This document shows positions 11,899 through 28,895 of a DNA stretch of 64,000 nt, piece after piece. The notes beneath the pieces are model-generated. The model saw nothing but the letters and a program-made list of their open reading frames with translations, was not told the DNA's origin and did no database searches. Source of the stretch: Candidatus Firestoneibacteriota bacterium (GTDB lineage: Bacteria > Oederibacteriota > D2-FULL-39-29 > JBBTED01). Location of the stretch: contig JBBTED010000027.1 of NCBI GenBank assembly GCA_038042445.1, forward strand, positions 32,001-96,000. The letters are read 5' to 3'. The translations under genes were made by a program, and so were the position numbers. Each line of letters opens with the position of its first letter. Position 1 is the first letter of the stretch.

Positions 11899-11962
11899 AG
11901 CAATGATTTAAAATTCATATACCTTTAAGTAAAGAACCCAGGATTAAAACCAATTTATCCTG

Positions 11963-12013: not shown

Positions 12014-12022
12014 GGTTTTTGA

Positions 12023-12217: not shown

Positions 12218-12237
12218 TTAACTCACCTCCATTTCAA

Positions 12238-12327: not shown

Positions 12328-12330
12328 ACA

Positions 12331-12831
12331 TTAACTCCTCAAGAATATATTGCCTACTATATAAACAATTGAAATGGCAATCAAATGTAGCAACCACCAC
12401 CCCATATTTGGGTAACGAAAAAATCTGTCTTTGCGCTTCAATTCAGAACTTGTATTCATTATATCCAATTCAAAAATAGCTTTTCCAAATGCAAATTTTC
12501 CAAATAATAAAATTATATCTGGTAAAGTAGTTTTTAGTATTAAATTTGAAGGTGTTATTACTTCCGGCAAATTTAAAAGTGAAAAATGTGCCATTGTAAT
12601 TGTTCCTATAATCACTAACATACCATTTATCACATAAGCATATTGTGTAGTTTTAGTATAAAAAAATAATACAGGTATAGCAAGGACACTTATAATACCT
12701 GATATAAAAGGTATTAAATGCTGTGATTCTTCAAAAGGTGGATGTATACGCAAATGCAAAAACCATCCTCCTAAAGAAATAAAAAATAACCCACTTATCA
12801 ATACTATTCGTACATTTTGCTTTTGCGTCAT
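12331..12831 (-). CDS. Multi-pass membrane protein with His in TM segments
   Basis: About 5 hydrophobic segments; WFLHLRIH, MAHFS, WWLLH. Confidence 0.65.
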   Translation of the reverse strand: MTQKQNVRIVLISGLFFISLGGWFLHLRIHPPFEESQHLIPFISGIISVLAIPVLFFYTKTTQYAYVINGMLVIIGTITMAHFSLLNLPEVITPSNLILKTTLPDIILLFGKFAFGKAIFELDIMNTSSELKRKDRFFRYPNMGWWLLHLIAISIVYIVGNIFLRS

Positions 12832-12859
12832 ATATTCTAAATATTTATTGAATTTAAAG

Positions 12860-12913
12860 GTAGTCGCAGGCTTTAGCCTGCGGTTCTTTCCGCAAGCTAA
12901 AGCTTGCGGCTAC
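12860..12913. repeat. GTAG REP doublet (cgcaggctttagcctgcg / cgcaagctaaagcttgcg)
   Basis: Same core as about 26958-27023 and 39645-39713. Confidence 0.8.
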
Positions 12914-12925
12914 CAATTCACCGTC

Positions 12926-13561
12926 CTAAAGTTTACTGTTTTTTAAATATATTTGCTTTGCCTTACTATAATTATCAAGTGTGTTTATATTAAAAAATGA
13001 AAGTAATTGTGTGTCAAATTGTTTTATTTCTCTTAAAGATATATTTTTTTTAATGATTTTAGCAAAAAAATTGGTTATTTTCAAATTAGTTTTCTCTAAT
13101 TGCTTTTCTATAGGTTTTATGCAATTTTTAGAATAAAATGCAAATAATGGTTCATATCCTTTTTGAAAAAAAGGAATAATAGCATCATATTTTTTATCTT
13201 TTGTAAACTTTTTCATATATTCAAGTAATTGGACATTCAAAAATGGCATATCACAAGCAGTAACAAAATTATAAAGTGTCTTTGAATACATTAAACCTGA
13301 ATAAAGCCCACCAATAGAACCTTTATCTTTGATATAATCACATACAACTTTTAAATGCAAGTCTTTATTTTTAAAAGAATTAACAATTGGTTCAATTTCT
13401 TTTTCGCGCATTTTAGAATTTACAACTACAATAATATTTTTGAAAATTTTTGCTAGTAGATTTATTCTACGTTCAAGCATTGTTTTATTTGCAAAAGGAA
13501 GGAATATTTTGTTTGTATTGATACGCGTGCTTTTTCCACCAGCAAGAATAATTGCTGTCAT
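12926..13561 (-). CDS. mobA: Molybdenum cofactor guanylyltransferase
   Basis: IILAGGKSTR, ACDMPF, EPLFAFY, FFNINT. Confidence 0.92.
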   Translation of the reverse strand: MTAIILAGGKSTRINTNKIFLPFANKTMLERRINLLAKIFKNIIVVVNSKMREKEIEPIVNSFKNKDLHLKVVCDYIKDKGSIGGLYSGLMYSKTLYNFVTACDMPFLNVQLLEYMKKFTKDKKYDAIIPFFQKGYEPLFAFYSKNCIKPIEKQLEKTNLKITNFFAKIIKKNISLREIKQFDTQLLSFFNINTLDNYSKAKQIYLKNSKL

Positions 13562-14004
13562 AGGACAGATATTTTATCTCCAGTTTTTATTTCGCCGCCT
13601 TGCAGTACTTTGGCAAATATACCTTCTTTTGGCATCACACAATCACCAACAGCATAATATATAGCGCAGTGAGAATGACAAACCTTTCCAATTTGTGTAA
13701 CTTCCAATAGAATATTTTCGCCGATTTGTATTTTGGTTCCAATTAAAAGATCTTTTAAATTTATCCATTCTGTAGTGATATTTTCTGCAAAATCTCCGGG
13801 CTTTACTTGTAAACCCTTCTCAATTATTTTATTTATACTTTCTTGAGCAAGCAAGCTTATTTGCCTATGCCAATCACCTGAATGTGCATCTCCAACAATT
13901 CCAAAGTTTTCTTTAAGACAAGCAAAAGGAATATTTTGTTTTTTTTCGCCTTTATTTTTACTTATAGATATTGCAATTATACTACCTGTTTGTTCACAAT
14001 TCAT
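13558..14004 (-). CDS. MOSC-domain protein
   Basis: GIVGDAH..WHRQISLL, GDFAENITT, QIGKVCHSHC, CVMPKEG. Confidence 0.9.
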   Translation of the reverse strand: MNCEQTGSIIAISISKNKGEKKQNIPFACLKENFGIVGDAHSGDWHRQISLLAQESINKIIEKGLQVKPGDFAENITTEWINLKDLLIGTKIQIGENILLEVTQIGKVCHSHCAIYYAVGDCVMPKEGIFAKVLQGGEIKTGDKISVL

Positions 14005-15637
14005 GACATTGCCTACATTCTTTTTTTGACATTTTTAAACGGACATCTTTATGCTGGCCAAATTCATGACAACTTATACAATCCAAACCAGCTTCAAGAT
14101 GTTTTAGATGCGGCATAATTTTATTTCCATATTTTACTGTTTCCGAAGGAATTTTGATATTCAATTTTGAATGACACATAGTCATACAAAATCTTCCGTT
14201 AATCAGTATATTTTCATTCATAGAAGGTAATTCTTTTTTAAGTAAATTACCTATTTTATCCAAAGATTTATTTGCTACCTGTAAAATCTGAACAGAATAA
14301 TAGATATTATGCAAACCACGTTTTTCTGATATAAACTGTATATTGTATCGGACATCTGAAAGCAATGTATTAGCATTATTGAAATCCGTTGAATTTTTAG
14401 GAATGGATTTAACCAAATCTTCTGCAATTTTTGATTTTGAATTAATTTCATCTAATGCATCATTTAAAATCTTTTTCCATTCTAATACCAAACCAGTATA
14501 TTTTTCACCATGACATTTAACACATGCATCTTCTTTATATTTGTATGTACTTCCATCAAATTTTGTGTTGCCATGAATTTGTTCTGAAATATGACAACCT
14601 ACACAATCCACATTTGCAAGATACATAGCACTTGGCATATCTGGAACTCCTTTTGCACCTATACCTTTATAAATCTGCTGAACACCTGTATGTTTATCTG
14701 TATGACATTTAGCACAATTAAGAGAAGTCATTTCTTTTTTAGATATAGTAGTTATAGAATGCCTCATTTCCTTATGACAATGAAAACAAGCTACATTCCT
14801 TTTTGTGATATGCTGCTCATGAATAAATTTCAAATCATTGTATTTTTGCAGTTTCTCAGGCTGATTATGACAGGTGTAACATCTTTCCTGTGGAGCTTCA
14901 CCATCCCCTTGAATAACATCTAAATGACACTTTTTACAACTCACATCTTTACCTTTTGCTGAAACAAAATTTTTGTGATTATAAACTATATTCCCTATTG
15001 TAAAATCTGTTTCAGGAACTTTATGGCAAGAAATACATCCACCAATAGGATTAATATCACGTGCCGTTTTCTTACCCTTAAAATGGCAAAGGTAACAGGT
15101 GTCCCATGTTACTTCAACATGTTTACCAACAACCATTTGTGAATGGCAAGAAGTACATCTAAGATGTCTACCACGACGTTCTTCAGTTAAATGATGCCTG
15201 TGGTTAAACATTATGCCTTTTTTTGTAGTAATTTTTCCTTCTAATAATCTGGTTGAATGACAACCTACCCTCAAACAAGAAGTATCTTCTATTTCAGCAT
15301 AAGGTTTAGATGAATATGTCCGTGTGACATATTTGGCAACTTGTGATAAAGCCTGAAATTTTTTCCATAATATTGTTTTAGGTTCACCAGGTGGATAGTG
15401 ACATTCTACACAAGCAACATTATTATGTTTTGAATTTTTCCATGCATCATAATATGGTTTCATTATATGACAGGATTTACAAAAAGATGGAGTGGTAGAA
15501 TATTTTGCCAACCCAAGTAAAATTACAACAAGTAATATTAATAATAAACCTATTAATTTAAAAAATCTTTTTTTAAAACTAATATACCATTTTTTATCTG
15601 GTGAAATTTCTATTCCTAAAAAAGAAAGTAAGTTCAT
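13994..15637 (-). CDS. Membrane-anchored multiheme cytochrome c with NapC/NirT-like N-terminus
   Basis: N-terminal TM, TTPSFCKSCHIM; 13 CxxCH plus one CX4CH and one CX3CH by manual count. Confidence 0.88.
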   Translation of the reverse strand: MNLLSFLGIEISPDKKWYISFKKRFFKLIGLLLILLVVILLGLAKYSTTPSFCKSCHIMKPYYDAWKNSKHNNVACVECHYPPGEPKTILWKKFQALSQVAKYVTRTYSSKPYAEIEDTSCLRVGCHSTRLLEGKITTKKGIMFNHRHHLTEERRGRHLRCTSCHSQMVVGKHVEVTWDTCYLCHFKGKKTARDINPIGGCISCHKVPETDFTIGNIVYNHKNFVSAKGKDVSCKKCHLDVIQGDGEAPQERCYTCHNQPEKLQKYNDLKFIHEQHITKRNVACFHCHKEMRHSITTISKKEMTSLNCAKCHTDKHTGVQQIYKGIGAKGVPDMPSAMYLANVDCVGCHISEQIHGNTKFDGSTYKYKEDACVKCHGEKYTGLVLEWKKILNDALDEINSKSKIAEDLVKSIPKNSTDFNNANTLLSDVRYNIQFISEKRGLHNIYYSVQILQVANKSLDKIGNLLKKELPSMNENILINGRFCMTMCHSKLNIKIPSETVKYGNKIMPHLKHLEAGLDCISCHEFGQHKDVRLKMSKKECRQCHEL

Positions 15638-15689
15638 ATTTTAACAGTTTTTAAATTTTTCAGTGGGTGATTTCTTTCTAAAATCCCCC

Positions 15690-17540
15690 TTAGTCCCCCT
15701 TTTTCAAAGGGGGATTTATTATTTTTTCATTATCAATTTTTTTTCCTGTAATCCATTGCCAACTCATTGGATAGATTTCCGGGTCAAAAATTGTCCAGTA
15801 AAAATGCCAGATAATAATTGCAACAGTAGCAAGTATTGCTTCATAAAAATGAATTAGTGTGGCTAAATCAGTAATCCATAATGGCAGATATTTTAAAGTT
15901 ATATTTTCAAATAAAAGCAAAATTCCTGTTACTATCATTATAATAGAACCCCATATAAGTGCCCAATATTCAAATTTTTCCATATAATTGTACTCACGAA
16001 ATTGTGGTTTTTCTTTACACAAACCAATATTATATCCAATAAATTTAAATGCATCAGTGATATCTTTGAATACAGGAAATAATTGTGTTACTCTCTTTCT
16101 GCCTGCTTTTGTAAATACAAGATAAAAAACGTGGAATATTGCAAATAGAATAAATATAAATGCTGTCCAGTGATGAATTTCACTCCTTATTTGTGAACCT
16201 TCCTCTAAAATTCTAAATGGATATGCCCACCAACTTTCAGGATATTTTACTGCAAAACCAGTATAAGCAAGTACTGAAAAACAAATCAAAAGTCCAAAGT
16301 GTTGTATTCTTTCATTAATACTCATTCTTTTATCATTCGCTTCTTTTTTACATTTTTTGTAATGTTCTCGTAAATTTTTTAAAAAATGAATTGCATTATG
16401 AAAAATCATACCACCAATTGTTAAAAGTATTAATGATATATAGAATATTTTAACATAATATATAATTAAATTTTTTTCTTTTGAATCTTTAGTATGTATA
16501 GAACCTGAAGCAAGCATTGCACCTGCACCAGGATGACATTTTCCACACGTCTTCGGTAGATTTACTTTATTTATGGAGGAAAGTTTATTATCTGACATCA
16601 AAATATCATGAAATCCATGACAAGAAGCACAATTAGCTACTCTTAAATCACCAGCTTTACCTGATAATCCATGAAATGAATCTAAATATGTTTGAACTCT
16701 ATCTGCAGGCAATCCAAATTTCGTAACAATTTTTTCAGAAGCATGACACCCTGAACAGGTTTTGGTTATTGCACCAATATATACAGATGATTCTTTGTCT
16801 TTAACAGCACGTATTGTATGTTCACCATGACAATCAATACATACTGGTGCTTCTTTAACACCTGCTTTTGAAACCACACCATGAATACTTCTTTCATATA
16901 CTTTAAATACATTTTCATGACATTTACTACAAGTAACTGGAATATTCTTATGAAATATTTTTGACATAGAGTTTGATGAACCATATATGTTGTGAGACCC
17001 ATGACAATCAGTACATACTGCTGCATTCATTTCTCCATTTTTCAATGCCTGGCCATGAATACTGTTTCTATAAGATTTATATGGTTCCTTTTGTGTAAGG
17101 TGAAATTTTTCCATTTTGCCTGAATTCCCATGGCAGTGTGTACAAGTATCAGGAATGTTTTTATGATAAACCGGAGATTTTGGATTTCTGCTATTCAAAA
17201 TAGTATGTGTGCTACCATGACAAGCTTTACAAGTAGCTGCTTCATTTATACCTTTAAGCTGTGCTTTTCCATGATCACTATTTAAATAGATTTCTGATTC
17301 TATTCTATGGCAGTCTTTACAAGATACAGGTTTTAATTTTTCATTATGCGGCAATTCCTTAATATCACTATGGCAAGAAATACACAGATTATTTCCATGT
17401 ATGGATTTTCCAAAAGCATTTGAATTAACCAATGGTGCGCCACTTTCTTTATCTTTATGACACACCATACATTCTTCATTTTCCTGTGCATATAGCAACG
17501 AAGATACAAATATAAAAAAAATAAAAATCTTTGTTTTCAC
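15690..17540 (-). CDS. Multiheme cytochrome c / cytochrome b fusion (CbcL-like), 11 CxxCH
   Basis: 11 CxxCH, then TM b-type domain (ERIQH, IHH, YMEKFEYWAL, IHFYEA, WHFY); start probably GTG 17540 or ATG 17555. Confidence 0.88.
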   Translation of the reverse strand: MKTKIFIFFIFVSSLLYAQENEECMVCHKDKESGAPLVNSNAFGKSIHGNNLCISCHSDIKELPHNEKLKPVSCKDCHRIESEIYLNSDHGKAQLKGINEAATCKACHGSTHTILNSRNPKSPVYHKNIPDTCTHCHGNSGKMEKFHLTQKEPYKSYRNSIHGQALKNGEMNAAVCTDCHGSHNIYGSSNSMSKIFHKNIPVTCSKCHENVFKVYERSIHGVVSKAGVKEAPVCIDCHGEHTIRAVKDKESSVYIGAITKTCSGCHASEKIVTKFGLPADRVQTYLDSFHGLSGKAGDLRVANCASCHGFHDILMSDNKLSSINKVNLPKTCGKCHPGAGAMLASGSIHTKDSKEKNLIIYYVKIFYISLILLTIGGMIFHNAIHFLKNLREHYKKCKKEANDKRMSINERIQHFGLLICFSVLAYTGFAVKYPESWWAYPFRILEEGSQIRSEIHHWTAFIFILFAIFHVFYLVFTKAGRKRVTQLFPVFKDITDAFKFIGYNIGLCKEKPQFREYNYMEKFEYWALIWGSIIMIVTGILLLFENITLKYLPLWITDLATLIHFYEAILATVAIIIWHFYWTIFDPEIYPMSWQWITGKKIDNEKIINPPLKKGD

Positions 17541-17567
17541 CCGAAAATCTCCCATTTTATTGTTTCT

Positions 17568-17623
17568 GTAGCTGCAAAGCAATAGCTTTGCTTTTTTTTT
17601 GCAGAGCTTCGCTCTGCCGCTAC
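17568..17623. repeat. GTAG REP doublet (gcaaagc..gctttgc / gcagagc..gctctgc)
   Basis: Free-standing relative of the core carried by the 140-bp MITE. Confidence 0.75.
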
Positions 17624-17664
17624 ACTGCCAACTGACCAAAATTTACAACTATAAATATTCTTAC

Positions 17665-20409
17665 TTATTTATATGCAAATAGCATAGCATAAATAATCCA
17701 TATTACCACGCTAAAACCAAGGACTAAAGCAGTCCAACCAAATATACGTATTGCCCTTATAACAATCGGCTGATATGGTTCTACAAGATATTTTTCAAGT
17801 TCTCCACTTGCAACTAATTCTTCATATTCTTCAGGTCTGTCATTTTTTAATTCTTCAACAGAAACACGACCTGTAAAAATACTGGTATCCATTGGAAATT
17901 TTTCCGGACGCCAGTGTGTATTAAAAAAATGCACTGTAAATATAAACCCTGCGGCAAGTAACGCCTCATCACTATGAATAATAGTTGCAACATTTATAAA
18001 CCAACCTGGCAAAAACTGTGTAAAAAACTCTGAAAACCACAGAAAAACACCTGTAAAACCAATAATAGCAATTCCCCAGAATACTGCAAAGTAATCAAAT
18101 TTTTCCCAATATGTCCACCTTCCATATCTTGGCCTTTTTCCCAAACCCAAAAACCACTTTATGGATCCAATTAAATCCAGTAAATCTTTTTTTGTAGGAA
18201 GCATAGTGTTTGTTCCTGATAACAAATTTTTCCATGTTTTAAATTCTTTACGTTTTTTTTGAAAAATATTAAAAAGATGCGTAAAGAAAATAATAAAAAG
18301 TAAAATTGCGGCAACACGATGTATATAACCTGCTGTTTCAAAACCACCGAGAAAATGCGATACAATTGATGACCATTTTGTATATGAGAATTTTAATGTC
18401 ATACCTGTAAATGCCAGACTTATAAAACTCACAATCATTGTAATGTGTAAAATTCGTTCTAAACGTGAAAACCTCACAATCTGTTTTTCTGTTGAATATA
18501 TATCTGCTTTTGGAAATTCCTTTTTATTTTTCATAGAACGTGAAAACCATAAAAGCGTATGAACACCACTAAAAAAGAAAGTGGTGACAAGAAGAGTTGT
18601 CATCCCCCAAAAAACCCAGAAAAGATACGGATATTTTTTAGGGTCATGATGTGTTGCATGTGTTAAATATCCTGCAAAACGTCTATTTGCACCTGAATGA
18701 CATTTCTGACAAGTTTGGACAATATTCTTACGGCTTAAGTGCGAGTTTGAATCAACAACAGATAAAATATCATGTGCCCCATGACAATCATAACATTTAG
18801 CTGTCTTTGTATAACCCAATTTCGAAATCTTGCCATGATATGTATCAAAATATGTTTTGGCAATTTCCTCATGGCATTTTCCACACACATTCATAATATT
18901 AAGCTTAAAACCATCTTCTCCTGCCCGCCTAATAGTATGAGCAGTATGACAATCCTTACACACAGGTAATTCCTTGTCTGTTTTATTATGCAATGGGGAA
19001 TGAACACTCTGGACAAATTGTTCGTAGACACCATAATGACAACGCCCACATGTTTCAGCAACCTTGTCTTTATGAATACTTGACCCAATATCACTATGTG
19101 GAAGTTCATGATGAGCTGTATGGCAATCCGAACAAGTTGCAGTAACAAGCAACCCACTTTTAAGAAGTCCCTTACCGTGAATACTCTCAGTGTAATTTTC
19201 AACAATTCTATGTTCTGTGCCAGTATATCGGATAGCTGATTTTTGTCCTGTTCTATGACACTTACCACAAAGATTTGGAACATTTAAAGGAAATATAGGT
19301 GATTTCGAATTTGTTTTTCCCATGATACCATGCGTTCCATGACATTCTTTGCAATTTGGAACATTTGGATCATTTTTAGCAAATAATTTTCCATGGATGC
19401 TATCTTTATATTCCTCAACAACTTCAGCATGACAATTTCCACAATCAACTTTTGTTTTTATACTTTCACAAGCACGATATTTAGAAGGATTCACATTTGA
19501 ATGGCATTTACTGCAGGCAATTTTTGTGTGTTTAGAAGAAGTTAATTCCTGATAATTTACATAAAGAGAATGTCCATCTCTTGATGCTTTTAAATCCTGT
19601 TTTGAGTGACATTTTAGACAATCCTTATCAGCCATTCCCTCTTCATAAAAAACCTTACGCACTTTATGTGGCTGATGGCAATCTACACAAGCGGGTAAAA
19701 CAGAATCCTCTTTTTCCCACAACTCACCTTTGATAATTTTTCTGTGTACATCTTCAATTTGCGTATGGCATTTATAGCATGTTGAAGCAATATTTTTACG
19801 AGATATTGAAGAACGCAAATCAGTGTGAGGTAAAATAAAATGTGATGTATGACACGATGTGCAAGTGGCAGTAACTGACAAACCCTTTTTTAGCAATCCT
19901 TCTCCATGAATACTCTCAGAATAATTCTCAAGAATTTTTGACTGATGAATGTTGCGTTGACTTTGAACAGGAGCGCCTTCTTGATGACACTTTCCACAAA
20001 CAAATGGCACTTTAATTGGTGATACTGCTGAGTTTTTATCCTTAACTTTTAATATATCGTGTGTTCCGTGACAATCTTGACAAAGCGGAGCCAATTTATC
20101 GCCTTTGGCAACTGCTTTTCCATGTAAGCTTTCAGAATATAATTTCTGTTGCTCTAAATGACAATTACCGCAACTAACTTTTAATGGTTTATCATGTGGA
20201 AAATCCTTCCCTTTTAGATCACTATGGCAGGAAATACATAGATTATTTTCATGTATAGATTTTTCAAAAACATTTGAATTAACTAATGGTGCGCCACTTT
20301 CTTTATCTTTATGACACACCATACATTCTTCATTTTCCTGTGCCTGCAAAAACATTGGTACACAGCATAAAAGGAAAATTATACTTATTTTTTGTATTCG
20401 TGAGTTCAT
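17665..20409 (-). CDS. Multiheme cytochrome c / cytochrome b fusion (CbcL-like), 19 CxxCH
   Basis: Signal peptide, 19 CxxCH, b-type domain (ERILH, IHR, WTYWEKFDY, IHSDEALLA, VHFFNTH). Confidence 0.9.
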   Translation of the reverse strand: MNSRIQKISIIFLLCCVPMFLQAQENEECMVCHKDKESGAPLVNSNVFEKSIHENNLCISCHSDLKGKDFPHDKPLKVSCGNCHLEQQKLYSESLHGKAVAKGDKLAPLCQDCHGTHDILKVKDKNSAVSPIKVPFVCGKCHQEGAPVQSQRNIHQSKILENYSESIHGEGLLKKGLSVTATCTSCHTSHFILPHTDLRSSISRKNIASTCYKCHTQIEDVHRKIIKGELWEKEDSVLPACVDCHQPHKVRKVFYEEGMADKDCLKCHSKQDLKASRDGHSLYVNYQELTSSKHTKIACSKCHSNVNPSKYRACESIKTKVDCGNCHAEVVEEYKDSIHGKLFAKNDPNVPNCKECHGTHGIMGKTNSKSPIFPLNVPNLCGKCHRTGQKSAIRYTGTEHRIVENYTESIHGKGLLKSGLLVTATCSDCHTAHHELPHSDIGSSIHKDKVAETCGRCHYGVYEQFVQSVHSPLHNKTDKELPVCKDCHTAHTIRRAGEDGFKLNIMNVCGKCHEEIAKTYFDTYHGKISKLGYTKTAKCYDCHGAHDILSVVDSNSHLSRKNIVQTCQKCHSGANRRFAGYLTHATHHDPKKYPYLFWVFWGMTTLLVTTFFFSGVHTLLWFSRSMKNKKEFPKADIYSTEKQIVRFSRLERILHITMIVSFISLAFTGMTLKFSYTKWSSIVSHFLGGFETAGYIHRVAAILLFIIFFTHLFNIFQKKRKEFKTWKNLLSGTNTMLPTKKDLLDLIGSIKWFLGLGKRPRYGRWTYWEKFDYFAVFWGIAIIGFTGVFLWFSEFFTQFLPGWFINVATIIHSDEALLAAGFIFTVHFFNTHWRPEKFPMDTSIFTGRVSVEELKNDRPEEYEELVASGELEKYLVEPYQPIVIRAIRIFGWTALVLGFSVVIWIIYAMLFAYK

Positions 20410-20496
20410 TTGATTATATTAACTATATATATCTATCATAACAGATAACAGATTTTACGTAGGGCAAGGCTTTACCTTGCGAATGGCAAACCTAAA

Positions 20497-20621
20497 GAGC
20501 CTGTGTCAAAACCCTATTTTGTCATCCTGAGGCAGTAGCCGAAGGATCTCATTTTTAAAGGGCTTTAAAGCGAGATTCTTCGGCTACTGCCTCAGAATGA
20601 CACCTTTTTTGGTACAAGTTC
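20497..20621. mobile_element. 125-bp MITE with TAAA duplication, inserted in a REP
   Basis: Imperfect TIR gagcctgtgtcaaaa / ttttggtacaagttc flanked by taaa; removal restores ggcaaacctaaaggtttgcc. Confidence 0.7.
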
Positions 20622-20651
20622 TAAAGGTTTGCCCTACAATGACTTTTCCTA

Positions 20652-22796
20652 TTATGTTTTATTTTTAAAAGCTAAAATATAAACATAAAAAGTTGCGCCC
20701 TTTCCTGTTTCAGATTCTACATCTATATGCCCTTCATGCCTTCTTATTATAGAATAAACTGTTGCAAGTCCTAAACCACTACCTCTTGATTTTGTTGTCC
20801 AATAAGGATCAAATATTTTTGTTATATTCTCTTTTGCTATGCCAACTCCCTCATCTTTTATCGCTATTTTTACATATTCACCATCTTTAATTAATAAATC
20901 CCCTTTAATGTCAATATTCTCTGCATTAATCTGCACCACACCGCCTTCAGGCATAGATTCTACTGCATTTATAATTAAATTATTAATTACCTGAATCATC
21001 TGCCCTTCATCAAATTCAACTGACCATAGATTATCAGAAATTATAGTATCAAATTTTACCTTAGAATTTCTTGTCAAATATTTAACTGTATCATTTAATA
21101 TTTTTGAAATTGACAAAACTTTTTTTATTGATTCTCCGCCCCTAGCAAAACTTGATAATTGTTTCGTTAATTCTTTTGCCTGCAAAGACGCTTTTTCAGC
21201 ATCAGCCAGTAATTCACCCAATTCCCCAGGATTTTGCAAATGCCTCTTCGCTAAAGAAATATTCCCTAAAATTGAAGTCAACATATTATTAAAATCATGG
21301 GCAATACCACCTGCAAAAACTCCTATTGATTCTACTTTTTGTGACTTTACAAACTCTATTTCTATTTTTTTCTGCTGTTCTTTTATTAAAAGAACATTTT
21401 GAATGTTAGATATCGCCGCTTCAAGTGAATCTTTTAATAAATTTAACCCATTAAGTTCATCTTTATAAAACATATCCCCAGAAAATTTATTACCTAATAA
21501 AATACAACCTTTTATTCCCCCATTTTTATTTACAGCAATCATTACCGCGTAATCCCCTGCATTCATTCCATCAAATATTTTCATTTCTGAGTCAGTAAGC
21601 ACTCTTCCTATTTCTATTTTTTTCTGAAGTTCATCTCTTATTATTATTTCTTCTTTACCCTCAAAACAATTCAAAAATACACTTTGATTGCTTTTTGTCT
21701 CCTTCATTGTATAAGATTTTTTATTTGAATCTTTACATTCAAATTCTCCTTCTATTATTGCTCCTGTTTTTCCAAATATTCTGATTGAACCTTTTTCTAC
21801 AAGAAAAATCTGAGGTATTTCCTTTAATAAATATTCAACAAGTTGGTTTTCATCTAATATACTTCTAATCTTTGATGTAAGCAATTGAATTGATTTAACA
21901 AAATCAATATTTTTTGCATAAAACTTTGCATTTATAAATGTACGAATTTTGCCACTAAATACTTTCAGGAATATAAAAGTAACAAATGTAATACAAGCTA
22001 AAGTTGGAAGGAAAAATGTCCTATGAAAATGAGAGGAAGGAAGTAGTATAAATACTATAATTATATTTAGTATTACCGTAGATGATAATATTGCCAAATA
22101 TTCCAATATTTTTCGCAATAAATATTGCAGGTTCACCATTTTTATGCGGATAAATGCATAAGCAATAGCTATAGTGTAAAATAAACTTGTTAAGTTCCCA
22201 AATGGATAAAATTCTATACCAAATGTAGGCAAAAAATTTGTTACTCCTCCCAATGCGCCTAAAAATGTTCCCCAGAAAATATATTTATATTGTTGTCTTT
22301 TTTGTCCTGAAGAAATCTTTATTAATTTAAAGATTAAAACTTGTGCATAGGTTATGTAAAAAGAGAAAACTACACTATATATCAAATCCCCTATATTTAC
22401 CAATGGATAATATCCCCAGAAATATTTTTTTAACTCATTACTTAAAATATTGCATTTAAAGTGTAACAATAAAAATAAAAAACTAAAAAAATAAGCAAGA
22501 TAAAGCAAAGTTTTATTTAATTTGGTTTTTATGTTTGCAACATTATAAACAAAATGAAAGGTTGTAGAAAAAATAAATATTGTTCCTGAAATTAATATAT
22601 GATTATATTTAACTGCTAACAAATATTCAGAAGTATTATACAACAAAAAGAAACCTAAATTCCATACAGCCATTGATAAATTCCAGAAAATATAAGCCAG
22701 AGTAATATTTTTATTTCTATTATTAATTAATATAAGTAATATTAGAGATATATTAAGAATAAATGCTACTAATGGCTGTATTGAATAAATTGTCAT
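20652..22796 (-). CDS. Histidine kinase with N-terminal 7TM sensor and GAF-like region
   Basis: Multi-TM N-terminus (KYFWGYYP, NFLPTFGIEFYPFGN), GGIAHDFNN, FDPYWTTK, GSGLGL. Confidence 0.88.
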   Translation of the reverse strand: MTIYSIQPLVAFILNISLILLILINNRNKNITLAYIFWNLSMAVWNLGFFLLYNTSEYLLAVKYNHILISGTIFIFSTTFHFVYNVANIKTKLNKTLLYLAYFFSFLFLLLHFKCNILSNELKKYFWGYYPLVNIGDLIYSVVFSFYITYAQVLIFKLIKISSGQKRQQYKYIFWGTFLGALGGVTNFLPTFGIEFYPFGNLTSLFYTIAIAYAFIRIKMVNLQYLLRKILEYLAILSSTVILNIIIVFILLPSSHFHRTFFLPTLACITFVTFIFLKVFSGKIRTFINAKFYAKNIDFVKSIQLLTSKIRSILDENQLVEYLLKEIPQIFLVEKGSIRIFGKTGAIIEGEFECKDSNKKSYTMKETKSNQSVFLNCFEGKEEIIIRDELQKKIEIGRVLTDSEMKIFDGMNAGDYAVMIAVNKNGGIKGCILLGNKFSGDMFYKDELNGLNLLKDSLEAAISNIQNVLLIKEQQKKIEIEFVKSQKVESIGVFAGGIAHDFNNMLTSILGNISLAKRHLQNPGELGELLADAEKASLQAKELTKQLSSFARGGESIKKVLSISKILNDTVKYLTRNSKVKFDTIISDNLWSVEFDEGQMIQVINNLIINAVESMPEGGVVQINAENIDIKGDLLIKDGEYVKIAIKDEGVGIAKENITKIFDPYWTTKSRGSGLGLATVYSIIRRHEGHIDVESETGKGATFYVYILAFKNKT

Positions 22797-24049
22797 AAGT
22801 ATTTTTTTAATAATAATACTGCATTTACACCTGAAAATCCAGAGGAATTTTGCATTGCAATATTTACTTCTTTTTTTCTTGCTTTATTTGGCACATAATC
22901 CAAATCACATTCTGGGTCAGGATATTCATAATTTATAGTTGGTGGAATAATATTATCTTCTATTATAAGACAATTTGTTATAGTCTGAAAAGCGCCTGCT
23001 GGTCCTAAAGAATGGCCTATCATTGATTTTAAACCACTTATTGGCACTTTATATGCATATTCTCCAAATGCTTTTTTAATAGCAAGTGTTTCTGTTTTTT
23101 CATTTAATTGTGTAGAACTTCCATGTGCCTGTATATAATCAACATTTTCAGGTTTAATATTTGCATTTTTCATTGCTATTTTCATTGCTCTTGCTGATTG
23201 CACCCCATCTGGAGCAGGAGCTGTCATATGATACGCATTACAAGTAGTTCCATAACCAATAACTTCAGCATATATATGTGCATTTCTTTTTATAGCATGT
23301 TCTAATTCTTCCATAATAACTATACCTGAGCCTTCTCCCATAACAAATCCATCTCTTTCTTTATCAAAAGGTCTTGAAGCTTTTTCCGGCTCATTATTTC
23401 TCGTAGACAATGCTTTTATTGCGCAAAATGAATACATTGTTAAAGGAGCAATTGGAGCCTCTGTTCCACCTGCAAAAATAATATCTGCAATTCCTTGTTG
23501 TATAGATGTATATGCATTACCTATAGCTACTGTTCCTGCTGTGCATCCTGTTGATATTACATTGTTATATCCAACTATGCCTAAGTCTATTGAAATCTGG
23601 CCAACTGAAGCGCAACAAAATACTGCAATCGTAGTAAAAGTGCTTACTCCTCTTAAACCATTCAATCTATAGTTTGTAAATTGTTTCTCTGCAAAATCCA
23701 TTCCGCTTACTGCAATACCAATAACTAACCCAATTCTTTCAGGATCTTCGTTTTTTATATTTAATTTTGCATCTATTAAAGCCAATTTAGCAGCACCCAT
23801 AGCATATTGTGTAGATAAATCAGTTCTTCTAATTTGCTTTGGATCCATATATTTTTTGGGATCAAAATTATCTATTTCAGCAGCTATTTGCGAAGGATGT
23901 TGGGAAGCATCAAATCTCGTAATTTTGCGTGTCCAAGATTTACCTGCTATTGTATTTTCCCAGAATTCCTGTTTTCCTATACCACTTGGAGCAACAACTC
24001 CAAGCCCTGTTATAACAACTCGTCTTTTATTTTCTTTAGTATCATTCAT
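22793..24049 (-). CDS. Beta-ketoacyl synthase, type II PKS KS-alpha-like / FabF family
   Basis: RRVVITGLG, STGCTAG, HGSST, KSMIGHSLG; start set at ATG 24049. Confidence 0.85.
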   Translation of the reverse strand: MNDTKENKRRVVITGLGVVAPSGIGKQEFWENTIAGKSWTRKITRFDASQHPSQIAAEIDNFDPKKYMDPKQIRRTDLSTQYAMGAAKLALIDAKLNIKNEDPERIGLVIGIAVSGMDFAEKQFTNYRLNGLRGVSTFTTIAVFCCASVGQISIDLGIVGYNNVISTGCTAGTVAIGNAYTSIQQGIADIIFAGGTEAPIAPLTMYSFCAIKALSTRNNEPEKASRPFDKERDGFVMGEGSGIVIMEELEHAIKRNAHIYAEVIGYGTTCNAYHMTAPAPDGVQSARAMKIAMKNANIKPENVDYIQAHGSSTQLNEKTETLAIKKAFGEYAYKVPISGLKSMIGHSLGPAGAFQTITNCLIIEDNIIPPTINYEYPDPECDLDYVPNKARKKEVNIAMQNSSGFSGVNAVLLLKKYL

Positions 24050-24154
24050 TTTATAATAAATTAAGTCGTTCTGATTCGCCTGTAACAAATTAGCCAAAAT
24101 AAATTTCGCTACGCAATAATTGTCATCCTGAGCGTTAGTGAAGGATCTCGTCTT

Positions 24155-24295
24155 GTAACAGATTAGCCATTCTAAAAATACACATTATTATTGTAGCTGC
24201 AGAGCAAAGCTCTGCTAAAAAACAGCAAAGCTTTCGCTTTGCGGCTACATAAACCATACAAAATCCATTAAATCTTAGAATGGCCAACCTATTAC
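24155..24295 (+). mobile_element. 141-bp MITE copy 1, 8-bp TSD ctcgtctt
   Basis: TIR gtaacagattagccattctaa / ttagaatggccaacctattac; sits inside a GTCATCCTGAG palindrome. Confidence 0.88.
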
Positions 24296-24372
24296 CTCGT
24301 CTTTATATAGATTCTTTATTTCATTCAGAGTGACAAAAAAGGTTGTTGAAAAACTTCCACTCCATTTGCATC

Positions 24373-24957
24373 TTACACATCTTTAACACCAGTTTTAAAT
24401 ATTGGAATAGGGAAAAATGCCCATACTTCTTTTTTGTATTTTAGATATTCTTCACCAAATTTTTTAATTAGTGCTTTTTCCTCAAAAATAAATCTTAAAA
24501 TAATAAGTGGAACAAATGTAATTACAATCAAAAAAAATGAATAATAAGCATTTGCTATTAAAGGTAGACCCAAAATTTCACAAAATAAAAACAAATAATG
24601 TGGATGCCTCATATATTTATAAGGACCTTTTTTAATTAAAGGATGGACATCTCTTATTTCTATTTCTACAGTCCAGTATTTATCTAAAGTCTTTATTGCC
24701 CAAATAGAAAGCATCCAACCCAGAATATACAAAACAAAAGCAATACCAGAAATATAATAATTTATATTTCTTTCAATAATAAAAAATTCTATAGGCGAAA
24801 CAAAAATTGGTAATATATAAAAAATATATATTGATTTAGTTATCCATTGAAATGAAATTTCCCCTTCTATTTTTTTGATTTTATGTATTTTAGAAGTAAT
24901 AAAGAACTTATTTATAAATACAAGAATTGCGAAAATTAAATAAATATTTTCAAACAT
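24373..24957 (-). CDS. ICMT/PEMT-family membrane methyltransferase
   Basis: LIKKGPYKYMRHPHY, EEKAL..FGEEY..YKK. Confidence 0.85.
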   Translation of the reverse strand: MFENIYLIFAILVFINKFFITSKIHKIKKIEGEISFQWITKSIYIFYILPIFVSPIEFFIIERNINYYISGIAFVLYILGWMLSIWAIKTLDKYWTVEIEIRDVHPLIKKGPYKYMRHPHYLFLFCEILGLPLIANAYYSFFLIVITFVPLIILRFIFEEKALIKKFGEEYLKYKKEVWAFFPIPIFKTGVKDV

Positions 24958-24966
24958 TTAGTTTAT

Positions 24967-26334
24967 TTATTTTGGAGCTTTTGCCTTTGGATAAGAATAA
25001 GCTACATAATGCGAAGATAAATTTGCTATTATAGGAAATATTCTCTCATTTAACCTCACATTATTTTCATTCCAATTATTATACAATTTCATAAGCCTGT
25101 TAAAAACAGTATTTAATTCAAATAGTTCCTGAAAAGCCCAGCAATAACCATTTTCCAAATCCTTTTCAGACATATTTTTTGGTTTATAACATACATGACA
25201 ACAATCAAAATATGCCCAACTTTTATTTAATATTCTTTTTTCTTTTTCAAGTTTAAAAAATAATTGTGTTCCAGGCAAAGGTGTAAGAATATTTACAAAA
25301 CAATTGCCAATACCAGAATCTTTTATAAAATTAACTGTTCTTTCAAATACATTTATATCATCATCATCAAACCCAAATATAAATGAACCAAGAATAATAA
25401 TACCTTTTGATTGAATTTTTCCTATTGCTTTATAATATAAATCAACTTTGTATTGATTGCCTTTATGAACTTCTGCTAAATTTTTTTGGTTAATTGATTC
25501 AAACCCTATTAAAATACTTAAACAACCACTTGCTACTAATAAATCAAGCAATTCATCATCTTCATATATCTCAATGGTTGCCTGTATTGTATAAGGTGTT
25601 TTAAGTGGTATCATTGCTTTTAAAAGTTCTTTTGCTCTTTTTTTATCAACTAAAAAATTATCATCACAAAAGAAAATCAATTTTTTATCAATTGAATTTA
25701 CAAATTCTATTTCTTTTATTACTTTTTCAACTGATTTACATCTGTATTTTTTACCAAAATATGTCTGAACAGAACAAAATTCGCAATTATAAGGACATCC
25801 GCGTGTTGTTTGAAGTATATGAAAATTATATTTTTTATTATTTAATAAATCGTATCTGGGAATAGGAGATAAATTTATATCAGGTTTTTCAGGAGATTCG
25901 TATATTTTTTTTAGATTATTATTTTTAAAATCTTCTATTACCTGCTTCCATATATTTTCTGCTTCTCCTTTTACAATAGTATCTGCATGTAAAAGCCCTT
26001 CTTCTGGAAGCATAGAAGTATGAATTCCACCAATTACAACTTGGACATTTCTTTTTCTGAATTCATCAGCAATTTCATAGGCACGAGTAGCCAAAGATGT
26101 ATTGGCACTTATTCCAACTAAATCAACTTTTTCATCAAAGTTAATATCCTCTATGTTTTCATCTTTGATAATTATATTTACATCTTCTGGTGTAAGCGCT
26201 GCTATAACAGGTATTGAAGCTATCATAGCACTGTATTTTTTTACTCCAAAAACAATTGATTGAAATTGTCCTCCCCAGTTTTCTAATTCTGTATCAGCAG
26301 TTTTTCGTTTGGGAACAATCAGCTTTAAAATCAC
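24967..26334 (-). CDS. B12-binding radical SAM protein
   Basis: N-terminal B12-binding domain (VVIGGIH), TRGCPYNCEFC, TPLPGT. Confidence 0.9.
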   Translation of the reverse strand: MILKLIVPKRKTADTELENWGGQFQSIVFGVKKYSAMIASIPVIAALTPEDVNIIIKDENIEDINFDEKVDLVGISANTSLATRAYEIADEFRKRNVQVVIGGIHTSMLPEEGLLHADTIVKGEAENIWKQVIEDFKNNNLKKIYESPEKPDINLSPIPRYDLLNNKKYNFHILQTTRGCPYNCEFCSVQTYFGKKYRCKSVEKVIKEIEFVNSIDKKLIFFCDDNFLVDKKRAKELLKAMIPLKTPYTIQATIEIYEDDELLDLLVASGCLSILIGFESINQKNLAEVHKGNQYKVDLYYKAIGKIQSKGIIILGSFIFGFDDDDINVFERTVNFIKDSGIGNCFVNILTPLPGTQLFFKLEKEKRILNKSWAYFDCCHVCYKPKNMSEKDLENGYCWAFQELFELNTVFNRLMKLYNNWNENNVRLNERIFPIIANLSSHYVAYSYPKAKAPK

Positions 26335-26924
26335 TCTACATCCTTTCTTGCTATTGCAATTTTAGGAAAAAATCTATTCACCTCTTGTTTATAACTTATA
26401 TATTTTTCTTTTAATGTTTCAAGCATTGCTTTTTCTTCTATGATTGAACGTAAAATAATTATTGGAAAATATGTAATTAAAAATATAGTGAGAAAATAAT
26501 AGGAATTTGGAATCAAAGTAATTCCTAATACTTCAAGTAAGTGAAAAACATTATTTGGGTGTCTCATATATTTATATGGACCATTTTTTATTAACTCGTG
26601 ATTATCTCGTATTTCAATATCCACACTCCAGTATTTCCCAAGCGAATTAAATGCCCACTGCCTTCCAAAAAGACCTATAGAATATAGCATAATTCCTGCA
26701 CAACTTACAAACAAATTCATATTTCTTTTTGCAACAAAATATTCTATAAAACTACCAAAAAGTATAATAAGGTAGACATAAAATATATATTTGGATGTCC
26801 ATTTAGCAATAACCTTGCCTTTGAGTTTTTCGGATTTCAAAGTTTTTTTTCTGATTGTGGACCTTATATGAAATGTAACTGCAAAAAATATAATATAAAA
26901 TATTGTGAAATAAATGTTATTCAT
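26331..26924 (-). CDS. ICMT/PEMT-family membrane methyltransferase (paralog)
   Basis: LIKNGPYKYMRHPN, EEKAM. Confidence 0.85.
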   Translation of the reverse strand: MNNIYFTIFYIIFFAVTFHIRSTIRKKTLKSEKLKGKVIAKWTSKYIFYVYLIILFGSFIEYFVAKRNMNLFVSCAGIMLYSIGLFGRQWAFNSLGKYWSVDIEIRDNHELIKNGPYKYMRHPNNVFHLLEVLGITLIPNSYYFLTIFLITYFPIIILRSIIEEKAMLETLKEKYISYKQEVNRFFPKIAIARKDVE

Positions 26925-26942
26925 TATTTTTAATAGTACTCA

Positions 26943-27064
26943 ATCTATGTCATAATGGTAGCCGCAGGCTTTAGCCTGCGAAAAAATTGTAAAAAATACC
27001 GCAAGCTAAAGCTTGCGACTACCACTACAGAGAAAATCGCAAAAAACGAATTATGACACAGTCT
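26943..27064. mobile_element. MITE-like element carrying a REP doublet
   Basis: TIR ctatgtcataat / attatgacacag; partial inverted relative at 39639-39729. Confidence 0.6.
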
Positions 27065-27521
27065 AAATGACTCCTTCCAATTTGTTCTTTAAACCAAGCA
27101 AAACATTTCTTGTAAGCTTGTCAATTGCGGGTTTTGCTATGAATTTGGATAAAATCCAGCCTAAAACAGGTGGATTTAAGCTTAATCTGTGTGTTATTGT
27201 TAATTTCGTGCCTTCAGGAACTTCTTCAAATAGCCACTCGATTTTCATTCCTTTTAATCTGCCTTCAATTTGTTCAAATTCTATTGTTTTATTGATATTA
27301 AATTTTACTTTTGACTTCCACTTCATTATTTTACCTTTTATTTCTGCAACTCTTTCAACAATCATTCCACCATCTTCTGTTTTTATAAGCTTTGATGGTT
27401 TATACCCCGGTATATAGGTATGAGAGTTTTCAATATCCTGTGCAATTTTATATACTTCAGGTAAATTTCTTTTTATTATAATTGTATCTTTTGTAATCAT
27501 ATTATTGCTACCACTCTGCAC
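27063..27521 (-). CDS. SRPBCC polyketide cyclase/aromatase-like protein
   Basis: WKS..IEFEQIEGRLKGMKIEW..GTKLTITH pattern; true start probably ATG 27500. Confidence 0.78.
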   Translation of the reverse strand: MQSGSNNMITKDTIIIKRNLPEVYKIAQDIENSHTYIPGYKPSKLIKTEDGGMIVERVAEIKGKIMKWKSKVKFNINKTIEFEQIEGRLKGMKIEWLFEEVPEGTKLTITHRLSLNPPVLGWILSKFIAKPAIDKLTRNVLLGLKNKLEGVI

Positions 27522-28264
27522 CAGCCGGCACTTGCTTTTTCAATTTTAACAGGAAAACAAATTATTTTAAAGCCGAAAGGTTTGGGAATCTTATCCAAAT
27601 TAGCAAGTTTTTCTATATGACAGTATTCAATTTTTTTCCCAACAAAATGTGCAGGAAATATAAAAGTATTATCTTTGGTTTTAAGAAAATCCTGCAACAT
27701 ATTAATTGCAGGTCTGTCAAAACCCCATGCATCTATCCCAAGTATTTTAACACCTTGTTTTAAAATATATTCTGTCCCTTCGGCACTCATTCCAGAATGT
27801 GCTGAAAAATAATTATCTTTTTCAAAATATTTGTCTGCACCTGTCATTATCAATACAATATCATAGGGCTTTATTTTATAGTTTATTTTATCTAATGCTT
27901 TTTGCACATCTATCTGCAAAATTGCATCACCTTGTTGTTTATGCCTAAAATCAAGAAGGACACCATCATTATAACACCATTCTAAAGGAATCTCATCAAC
28001 TGTTATTGCTTTTTTACCATTAATCTGCGAAGTAAAATGCCAAGGAGCATCAAGATGTGTTCCTGAATGTGTATCTAATATTATTTCTTCATTTGCAAGA
28101 CCTCTACCATCAGGAAAATCTTTTTCAGTTATTTGAGTTTTAAAAATATTACTCGCAGCAGCACTAAGATTTTTTGCACCCTCTATATGATTAAAATATT
28201 TTATTTTGGGTGACTCAGGCTCCGGTGTATTATTTTTAATAGGTAAACTCAAGTCAATAAGCAT
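27497..28264 (-). CDS. Cyclase-family metal-dependent protein (kynurenine formamidase/polyketide cyclase)
   Basis: HSGTHLDAPWHF, GIDAWGFD, HIEKLANL. Confidence 0.85.
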   Translation of the reverse strand: MLIDLSLPIKNNTPEPESPKIKYFNHIEGAKNLSAAASNIFKTQITEKDFPDGRGLANEEIILDTHSGTHLDAPWHFTSQINGKKAITVDEIPLEWCYNDGVLLDFRHKQQGDAILQIDVQKALDKINYKIKPYDIVLIMTGADKYFEKDNYFSAHSGMSAEGTEYILKQGVKILGIDAWGFDRPAINMLQDFLKTKDNTFIFPAHFVGKKIEYCHIEKLANLDKIPKPFGFKIICFPVKIEKASAGWCRVVAII

Positions 28265-28272: not shown

Positions 28273-28677
28273 TTACAAATCTTTTTTATGAACCATAAAT
28301 GGTTTTTGACCTACAAACTCACCATTTGCAAATATCCTGAATGCATATTTGCCTGGCTCATTAAAAACTATGCCGTGCAAATTAAATACTAATTCATAAC
28401 TTGCCAGTTTATCAACTACATCAATTTCAGGTATTTCTGTCTTAGCAACAACTATATCTGTATCAAAATTAACGAATTCTAAAGCAAATTTATATATTCC
28501 CAATGCATCAGTAAATTTTACAAACACACTCAAAGATGGATGTGCGCAGGGAAAAGAAGATGCTGAGATATTTTCAAATAATCCAATTAAACTCTTCTTA
28601 TTTGTTCCAACTTCAGTAATTACTGTATCGCATATAAGCATTGCATTCAAATGCGGTTTTAGATTTGAAGTATTCAT
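28273..28677 (-). CDS. Hypothetical beta-sandwich protein (DUF6941-like)
   Basis: LICD.VI....NKKSLIGLF..I, F.EPGKY. Confidence 0.6.
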   Translation of the reverse strand: MNTSNLKPHLNAMLICDTVITEVGTNKKSLIGLFENISASSFPCAHPSLSVFVKFTDALGIYKFALEFVNFDTDIVVAKTEIPEIDVVDKLASYELVFNLHGIVFNEPGKYAFRIFANGEFVGQKPFMVHKKDL

Positions 28678-28709
28678 ATTTTTACCTTCTCACTACTGTT
28701 ACATTTAAA

Positions 28710-28848
28710 GTAACATTAGCCATTCTAAGAATATACATTATTATTGTAGCTGCAGAGCAAAGCTCTGCTAAAAACCAGCAAAGCTTTCGCTTTGCGGCTA
28801 CATAAACTATACAAAATCCATTAAATATTAGAATGGCTAACCTATTAC
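28710..28848 (+). mobile_element. 139-bp MITE copy 2, 8-bp TSD catttaaa
   Basis: Same TIRs and core as copy 1; empty-site analogue at about 30405-30455. Confidence 0.88.
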
Positions 28849-28895
28849 CATTTAAAAGACTTTGGTTCCCCGATTACTCGGGAATGACAGAATTT

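Follow-up and report, generated by a model that had tools for sequence, protein, structure and literature searches.

A 64,000-nucleotide stretch of DNA (the window; positions 32,001 to 96,000 of contig JBBTED010000027.1, C27:32001-96000) from a Candidatus Firestoneibacteriota bacterium carries the gene of a FabF-like ketosynthase (KS) directly in front of the gene of a sensor histidine kinase with a seven-transmembrane (7TM) and GAF-like input region. Upstream of these are genes for a B12-binding radical S-adenosylmethionine (SAM) enzyme, two ICMT-family methyltransferases, an SRPBCC protein and a cyclase-family protein (Table 1). The pairing of a KS with a 7TM/GAF kinase has been found in 11 of 99 genomes of the window's GTDB phylum, distributed over 8 families, and also in two Armatimonadota genomes. 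We tentatively regard the window as holding one member of a mosaic cassette, in which a 7TM-GAF sensor histidine kinase is co-inherited with a dedicated, FabF-derived KS and its tailoring enzymes, a reading that we favour with slightly less than even confidence. With the same reserve, it is suggested that the cassette could make a methylated lipid-like molecule from fatty-acid intermediates, which would be sensed by the co-encoded kinase.

Conservation of the KS-kinase pairing

The phylum was surveyed at a KS threshold of E<=1e-100. The genome from which the window comes (G000; 2.8 Mb, 181 contigs, 90% complete) is one of the eleven with the pairing, the others being G001, G007, G034, G039, G053, G056, G059, G087, G089 and G090; G001 and G007 are of one genus and count as a single observation. 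Two KS copies at this threshold are present in 13 other genomes, and the KS-kinase cassette is found in 10 of these. A preliminary description of this DNA had made its case depend on conservation of the KS-kinase linkage, and the linkage is conserved, well beyond chance.

The cassettes usually add a B12 radical SAM enzyme and a methyltransferase, which may be of the ICMT type or of class I. In G001 and G007, which belong to the same class as the window, a sigma-54 receiver-activator gene is followed by the KS, one or two radical SAM enzymes, an ICMT and the 7TM kinase. In both genomes a TGGCAC-N5-TTGC motif precedes the start of the KS by about 85 bp, with the receiver-activator gene directly upstream, and perfect sigma-54-type motifs are located at L190:7192-7206 and L189:9258-9272 (G001/G007). 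A further motif of this type (L189:3745-3759) precedes a hybrid kinase gene that lies 3' of the 7TM kinase.

The remaining eight genomes have a form that we call type A, with the order KS, B12 radical SAM enzyme of ~560 aa, class I methyltransferase, 7TM kinase, B12 radical SAM enzyme of ~460 aa, ribbon-helix-helix protein and receiver/HisKA/HATPase protein, in which parts are missing or cut at contig ends. Type A cassettes are without the SRPBCC protein and the cyclase and keep the KS, the methyltransferase, the radical SAM enzyme and the kinase. The conserved core is a KS with a B12 radical SAM enzyme, a methyltransferase and a 7TM-GAF kinase, and not a KS with cyclases. The methyltransferase is of the ICMT type in the window, G001 and G007 and of class I in the other eight, a non-homologous swap that keeps the methylation step. 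In the window, the KS stop overlaps the kinase start by 4 nt as TTATGACA, the ATGA noted in the preliminary description, and overlaps of 4 nt also join the methyltransferase, kinase and radical SAM genes in the loci L168 and L169.

Six type A operons continue, 3' of the kinase, with genes for a ribbon-helix-helix protein and a receiver-HisKA-HATPase protein. The former (NikA/CopG-like, 83-99 aa) is conserved (L289:10751-11002, L291:3247-3498 and L168:8511-8810), its gene precedes that of the receiver-kinase protein and follows that of the 7TM kinase or of the radical SAM enzyme, and it may be the DNA-binding output of these operons. In the type A cassette of G087 (L191:9003-12396), the methyltransferase gene is split by an opposite-strand rve-family integrase gene and that of the radical SAM enzyme is spread over two frames; this cassette appears to be decaying. 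G036 and G045 have a KS followed by a FAD-type gene and no kinase, and an SRPBCC gene was seen only in G036, as the G045 contig starts at the KS.

In Armatimonadota, one of the two loci with the pairing (L172, found by a sensor-profile search) has a cyclase gene, an SRPBCC gene, a PocR-GGDEF-KS fusion and a 7TM/GAF/PAS kinase, which is the order of the window minus its ICMT-radical SAM-ICMT block. The other (L332) has an SRPBCC gene, a fusion KS and a GAF kinase that aligns with the window kinase across 92% of its own length (E 8e-65). When 401 genomes were searched with an SRPBCC profile, a KS was found beside the SRPBCC gene in 14 of the 29 best Armatimonadota loci outside the genome of L172, as it is in G036. 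Among 16 enlarged Armatimonadota loci the variants include B12 radical SAM-SRPBCC-KS-class I methyltransferase, FAD_binding_3-SRPBCC-KS, and SRPBCC-KS-hybrid kinase-sigma-54 regulator. The SRPBCC-linked KSs of Armatimonadota and of G036 and G045 form a clade of 12 rows, with a support of 100 in the Shimodaira-Hasegawa-like approximate likelihood ratio test (SH-aLRT), next to the fusion KSs. In these fusions, the KS domain is joined C-terminally, at the output end, to cyclic di-GMP (c-di-GMP) signalling domains (P0058, P0069, P0095, L172:1498-3834 and L332:7470-9809, the P-numbered homologs being matches in a word-based search of 5.8 billion proteins). P0058 and P0069 are PilZ-KS fusions in which the RxxxR and NxSxxG motifs are present, and the PocR-GGDEF-KS fusions have a degenerate GGDEF signature (GQDDF, EENRL, EEDEF).

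For the same 13 loci, the supported splits of a KS tree agree with those of a kinase tree built from the first 460 residues. Both trees set the window and Armatimonadota apart from the same-class G001 and G007 (Elusimicrobiota), at 95 and 99 SH-aLRT, and the sole conflict is G056 with G089 (99, kinase tree) versus G059 with G089 (87, KS tree). Branch lengths put the rate of evolution of the sensor region at about three times that of the KS.

The sensor kinase

The sensor region, taken as about the first 460-470 residues, is the part of the window kinase that aligns with the kinases of the other cassettes, and the window kinase is the only protein of its genome that matches a type A kinase over this part. 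Its nearest relatives over the sensor region are the kinases of L172 and L332 (E 8e-30 and 5e-23), the type A kinases being farther (E 6e-18 to 2e-7). The score for HisKA_7TM (PF16927) is 19.2 bits, below the cut-off of 28.6 that the kinases of the relatives pass; structure and feature matches in the Atlas relate residues 1-470 to HisKA_7TM+GAF clusters at TM-scores of 0.54-0.72, with at least 0.57 in 9 of 10 rows. The window kinase is without a receiver domain and has the H-box AHDFNNM, and the H-boxes across the cassettes (AHDFNNM, AHEINNP, AHEIRNP) show that the kinase core varies as the sensor type is kept.

A genome scan with the whole kinase returned matches to the core only (residues ~370-714), with none of the 80 loci kept reaching the 7TM region. 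In the search of 5.8 billion proteins, the only close relative of the sensor region among the matches listed is P0122 (48%), which has an added receiver domain and comes from a 4,594-nt contig.

Identity of the ketosynthase

The catalytic set of the KS is intact (Cys in STGC, His in AHGSS, Lys-His in KSMIGHS), and the protein scores above the fabF equivalog hidden Markov model TIGR03150 (523.5 bits against a cut-off of 493.75). Its best 18 solved relatives are FabF proteins and the actinorhodin KS-alpha is the 19th; it is 44-45% identical to true KS-alpha proteins from actinomycete plasmids and 45-53% identical to Bacillota FabF. The housekeeping FabF of the genome is encoded elsewhere, in a fabD-fabG-acpP-fabF operon at the end of contig C19, with its C-terminus on C29. 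This fabF gene is split over contig ends (G000 C19:2-970 and C29:5871-6341), and a count of full-length KS genes misses it.

KS trees of 63 and 78 rows were made with IQ-TREE and rooted on chain-length factors (CLFs), four of which were included together with four true KS-alpha proteins. These KS-alpha references, from Streptomyces and Pseudonocardia plasmid loci (L272-L275), are each followed by a CLF and in 3 of 4 cases also by an annotated acyl carrier protein (ACP). The housekeeping FabF clade (24 rows, 98 SH-aLRT) contains FabF of S. aureus, Legionella, Bacteroides and C. acetobutylicum, that encoded on C19 of this genome and those from the fab operons of relatives, and is without the window KS, as is the KS-alpha clade, which has a long stem (100 SH-aLRT). 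The window KS falls in a third clade, of 10 rows (96 SH-aLRT), which joins the rest in a basal polytomy. Its motifs are STGC (STGCTAG), AHGSS, GHSLG and GFSGVN, as opposed to TACA, AHGTS, GH[ML]LG and GFGGHN in housekeeping FabF. STGC, AHGSS, GH[SP]LG and loss of the GFGGHN His are common to the aligned kinase- or SRPBCC-linked KSs and absent from housekeeping FabF.

By its placement and motifs, the window KS is best classed as a non-housekeeping FabF paralog, neither KS-alpha nor housekeeping FabF. The preliminary description, citing STGCTAG and GHSLG, had placed it nearer to KS-alpha than to FabF, and had proposed the phylogeny as a check. Both motifs are present, the active-site motifs are PKS-like (PKS, polyketide synthase), and the KS does not group with housekeeping FabF, but the proposed affinity with KS-alpha fails in the tree and the protein passes the fabF model.

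No second KS-like open reading frame, as expected of a CLF, was seen in the window region, and no ACP-like frame in the gaps of the cassette, including the 275-bp gap, in line with what had been described for the locus. The genome-wide search that had been suggested for both gave three PF00109 matches (the window KS, the C19 FabF and a weak 38-position match on C122) and two PF00550 matches, one in the fab operon on C19 and one on C160 between genes for acetate kinase and an outer-membrane protein. This second ACP was considered as the carrier of a PKS and rejected on its genomic context. The closest KS homologs in the 5.8-billion-protein search carry the source names Elusimicrobiota/Endomicrobiales; a metagenome scan with the KS gave nothing closer than 52% identity, and hence no context for the nearest relatives.

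The tailoring enzymes

The radical SAM enzyme has a B12-binding domain followed by a radical SAM core, as in class B, with no NCBIfam model above its cut-off, and is predicted to be a methyltransferase. Homologs lie inside the KS-kinase operons of G056, G053, G059 and G087. Two closer homologs (69% and 64%) come from contigs of 198,820 and 6,199 nt, and because the contigs of the 80% and 71% KS homologs have the same sizes, the link between the radical SAM enzyme and the KS probably holds in the closest relatives. Outside the phylum, none of 31 loci with radical SAM homologs has an ICMT, SRPBCC or cyclase gene beside it. In one of these loci, from a metagenome-assembled genome labelled Proteobacteria (L029:1134-9254), a pair of a KS and a divergent KS-like gene is flanked by two radical SAM homologs, 41-42% identical to that of the window, in a lipid or polyketide cluster of another, KS/CLF-like kind.

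The two ICMT proteins are 45% identical to each other, and ICMT 1 shares 38-40% identity with the ICMTs that the KS-kinase operons of G007 and G001 encode. The ICMT proteins also match LmtA, a lipid A phosphate methyltransferase, and PEMT, in each case weakly. For the SRPBCC protein, the best PDB match is TTHA0849 (E 7e-7), polyketide cyclases of the WhiE/TcmN type matching weakly (E 0.01-0.2), and it shares 34% identity with the SRPBCC protein of L172. The cyclase is 52% identical to the one that heads the L172 cassette, and its nearest solved relatives are isatin hydrolases and metal-dependent hydrolases. In a genome scan with the cyclase, a KS was found beside 0 of 80 related loci; this widespread family does not generally accompany KSs. 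The sole SRPBCC-like match in that scan (L192) was discarded as a fragment that lies in a different frame and next to the gene of an Opp permease.

Proposed product and signalling

In the mechanism that we propose, the KS would take acyl-ACP from ordinary fatty-acid synthesis and condense it with malonyl-ACP to give a beta-keto product; because the locus encodes no dedicated ACP, the KS would have to draw on the fatty-acid pool of the cell. The SRPBCC protein and the metal hydrolase ("cyclase") might bind, release or cyclise this product, the B12 radical SAM enzyme would C-methylate it, and the two membrane ICMT enzymes would O-methylate it, yielding a small, neutral, membrane-soluble molecule. 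The 7TM-GAF input of the kinase could detect this molecule within the membrane, and the kinase would in turn feed back on the operon or act on other targets, an arrangement like that of the synthase-plus-receptor operons phcBSRQ and agr.

More speculatively, and with the balance of probability somewhat against it, these cassettes may constitute a family of lipid/polyketide autoinducer systems, absent from the literature searched, across uncultivated, mostly anaerobic phyla. In such a family a FabF-derived KS would tap fatty-acid synthesis, B12 radical SAM enzymes and interchangeable methyltransferases would lend each variant its own methylation pattern, the product would be read by a co-inherited, fast-evolving 7TM-GAF kinase, and in some lineages fusion to PilZ or degenerate GGDEF domains would link the KS with c-di-GMP. 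The gene combination was not found in the literature searched (articles without their supplements), and no ligand of HisKA_7TM was found in the available excerpts of papers that name the domain. Almost nothing is known of signalling between cells in Elusimicrobiota, Armatimonadota and comparable uncultured groups; a signal of the kind proposed would represent a new chemical class of self-made signal and the first ligand for a widespread 7TM-GAF input module, and would show the recruitment of a fatty-acid enzyme for signalling.

Among described systems, the closest logic is arguably that of the phcBSRQ operon of Ralstonia, in which, according to the available excerpts of the reports, the methyltransferase PhcB makes methyl 3-hydroxymyristate or -palmitate and PhcS is the sensor kinase (PMC8578825, PMC11960443), with PhcR, a receiver joined to a kinase domain, and the receiver PhcQ encoded in the same operon (PMC8578825). 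Both systems would place a SAM-dependent methyltransferase acting on a fatty-acid-derived molecule and a membrane sensor kinase in one operon, and in six type A relatives the receiver-HisKA-HATPase protein that follows has the PhcR architecture as given in the excerpts of that report (PMC8578825). The cassettes differ in adding a dedicated FabF-like KS and one or more B12 radical SAM enzymes and, in the window, an SRPBCC protein and a cyclase. The window further differs in that its methyltransferases are of the ICMT type, its sensor is a 7TM-GAF module, its KS lies between the ICMT genes and the kinase, and no PhcR- or PhcQ-like gene is nearby.

In agr-type operons, signal-making genes, a polytopic histidine kinase and a regulator form one autoactivated operon. 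The cassettes are similar in joining biosynthetic genes and a multi-pass membrane kinase in one unit, with a regulator and a promoter motif in front in G001 and G007; they differ in that the putative signal would be a lipid or polyketide in place of a peptide, that the regulator, where there is one, is a sigma-54 activator, and that autoactivation is putative. The likeness of the KS to housekeeping FabF lies in its fold, its length, the Cys-His-His-Lys set and its best solved relatives; it differs in being a second copy, encoded away from the fab operon, in falling outside the housekeeping clade (98) and in its motifs. With type II PKSs the locus shares KS motifs that resemble those of KS-alpha and the accompanying SRPBCC and PF04199 genes; unlike these, it has no CLF or ACP and its cyclase is closer to hydrolases.

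Alternative explanations

The main rival is a kinase-controlled system for the tailoring of membrane or envelope lipids, in which the KS, the radical SAM enzyme and the methyltransferases would alter the lipids of the cell itself in chain length, methyl branching or the methylation of head groups or lipid A, and the kinase would sense the state of the membrane and adjust expression to it; we consider this somewhat unlikely. Lipid-modifying enzymes are co-transcribed with a two-component system in pmrCAB/eptA-basRS and DesK-DesR. The weak matches of the ICMTs to LmtA and PEMT are compatible with such a role, as are the score of the KS above the fabF cut-off, its lack of a dedicated ACP, and the PilZ-KS and GGDEF-KS fusions that set the KS at the output end of signalling proteins; positive autoregulation by the sigma-54 activator would fit stress regulons equally well. 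The interchangeable soluble and membrane O-methyltransferases would, by contrast, be better suited to a free small molecule than to a building block of glycerolipids, the patchy spread (11 of 99 genomes) is unusual for core membrane homeostasis, and a sensor that evolves about three times faster than the KS may be of the kind often seen in ligand-matched receptors. If lipid tailoring were the true role, the locus would represent a new regulated pathway that uses B12 radical SAM chemistry in anaerobes, and in either case the cassette is a compact unit suited to heterologous expression.

That the locus is a type II PKS making an aromatic polyketide, as was proposed in the preliminary description, is not upheld. 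In a minimal form of that idea, an iterative KS homodimer, the SRPBCC protein as aromatase/cyclase and the PF04199 protein as second cyclase would make a methylated aromatic polyketide (a resorcinol, pyrone or similar) that the kinase senses, and this also appears improbable. The motifs STGCTAG and GHSLG and the lost His of GFGGHN are what such a system might have, the KS is nearly as close to KS-alpha (44-45%) as to Bacillota FabF (45-53%) and stands outside the housekeeping clade, the order cyclase-SRPBCC-KS is common to L172, and FAD_binding_3 hydroxylase-like and class I methyltransferase genes adjoin SRPBCC-KS in Armatimonadota. These points are countered by the lack of a CLF or dedicated ACP at the locus or beside the genome's second ACP, by the position of the KS outside the KS-alpha clade (100), by a hydrolase-like cyclase that is nearest to isatin hydrolases and next to a KS in 0 of 80 related loci, by the weak match of the SRPBCC protein to WhiE/TcmN-type cyclases (E 0.01-0.2), and by type A cassettes, which do without the SRPBCC protein and the cyclase and keep the rest. 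A coincidental association, in which the KS would be a spare FabF, the kinase would serve the downstream respiratory island (multiheme cytochromes and molybdenum oxidoreductase), and the ICMT and radical SAM genes would be an unrelated unit parted by mobile repeats, has in our view little chance. It would account for the hairpin repeats between three gene groups, for the cytochrome genes 3' of the kinase in the same orientation (13994-20409), for a kinase core unlike that of type A kinases, and for the failure to find a kinase ortholog, among the matches listed, on the contigs of the closest KS relatives. It sits poorly with the overlap of the KS stop and kinase start, with the pairing with like tailoring genes in 10 other genomes of the phylum and two of Armatimonadota that are without the cytochromes, and with a sensor region that groups with the KS-linked kinases of Armatimonadota just as the KS does.

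Several observations weigh against a co-inherited signalling cassette. Kinship inflates both the tree congruence and the genome counts, so that independence is overstated; the KS clade of the window and that of type A are separate lineages in the basal polytomy; and many SRPBCC-KS clusters of Armatimonadota, like those of G036 and G045, are without a kinase. No kinase match from the contigs of the closest KS homologs (81,757 and 198,820 nt) is among the matches listed in the protein search, which means "not found" and not "absent", and because of this the KS-kinase linkage is not demonstrated in the window's own KS clade. An operon that combines a lipid enzyme with its own two-component system also fits lipid homeostasis. 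In the window, hairpin-bearing repeats part the cassette into cyclase-SRPBCC, ICMT-radical SAM-ICMT and KS-kinase; as the hairpins resemble terminators, one operon cannot be taken for granted, and the cassette may be three transcription units rather than one. A motif search of the window found no sigma-54 motif on the right strand near the cassette, no cognate regulator adjoins it, and a sequencing-run search found no RNA run that contains the stretch.

Organisation of the cassette and its surroundings

All seven genes named in the preliminary description are present, on the minus strand, and the DUF6941 gene upstream of the cyclase may be the first gene of the unit (Table 1). The radical SAM gene overlaps that of ICMT 1 by 4 nt.

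Table 1. Features of the cassette region, from upstream to downstream in the direction of transcription (positions counted from the first nucleotide of the window)
Feature	Positions	Strand	Matches and remarks
DUF6941 gene	28273-28677	-	PF22091 76.2 bits; ends 8 nt upstream of cyclase; paralog at C155
Cyclase-family metal-dependent hydrolase	27497-28264	-	PF04199 120.9 bits; motif THSGTHLDAPWH
SRPBCC / START-fold protein (Polyketide_cyc)	27063-27521	-	PF03364 51.7 bits
Dispersed repeat, SRPBCC-ICMT gap	26937-27062	.	110 blastn matches across genome for gap; terminator-like hairpin 26998-27019
ICMT-family membrane methyltransferase 1	26331-26924	-	PF04140 56.1 bits, PF04191 53.5 bits
B12-binding radical SAM enzyme, DUF4070 tail	24967-26334	-	PF02310 37.5, PF04055 64.8, PF13282 25.2 bits
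ICMT-family membrane methyltransferase 2	24373-24957	-	PF04140 66.1 bits
Dispersed repeat of ~140 bp, inside 275-bp ICMT-KS gap	24155-24295	.	Terminator-like hairpin 24225-24242
FabF-like KS	22793-24067	-	TIGR03150 523.5 bits; ATG start, TTG at 24097 also open
Sensor histidine kinase	20652-22796	-	7TM + GAF-like region, HisKA, HATPase

Dispersed repeats with many copies genome-wide occupy the gaps 24098-24372 and 26925-27062, and such repeats are present in every intergenic gap of the cassette (24155-24295, 26937-27062, 28678-28895 and 20410-20651). The repeat at 24155-24295 has 94-98% identical copies on C27, C170, C176 and C147 and shorter copies elsewhere. The terminator-like hairpins of the repeats in the cassette gaps are on the sense strand; the hairpin sequence of 24225-24242 is found again at 28778-28795, and a hairpin (GCAAAGCGAAAGCTTTGC) with a T run is common to two repeat copies. 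The stretch, which has a GC content of ~30%, was found by the sequencing-run search in groundwater metagenome runs of four studies, and summed contig depth in other runs is several-fold higher over the repeat stretches. Mapping of four runs to the window gave only short contig pieces, strain variants and multi-copy depth over repeats, and did not inform operon structure. A scan for sigma-70 promoters was likewise uninformative (59 sites against 52.5 expected).

The preliminary description had reported no response regulator in the window, which needs correction: a regulator with receiver and GerE domains is encoded at 8903-9523, although it adjoins its own HisKA_3 kinase (9524-10969) and is 11 kb away from the cassette. 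This NarL-type two-component pair lies with a phosphonate-binding-type periplasmic protein (8903-11898) within a molybdenum-enzyme island (967-13561), which encodes a molybdopterin oxidoreductase with an Fe-S subunit, a NarJ-like chaperone, MoaA, MobA, MobB and a molybdate transporter. Between this island and the cassette, 3' of the kinase and in the same orientation, are three very large multiheme c-type cytochrome genes (13994-20409), two of which are fused to cytochrome b (Ni_hydr_CYTB) membrane domains.

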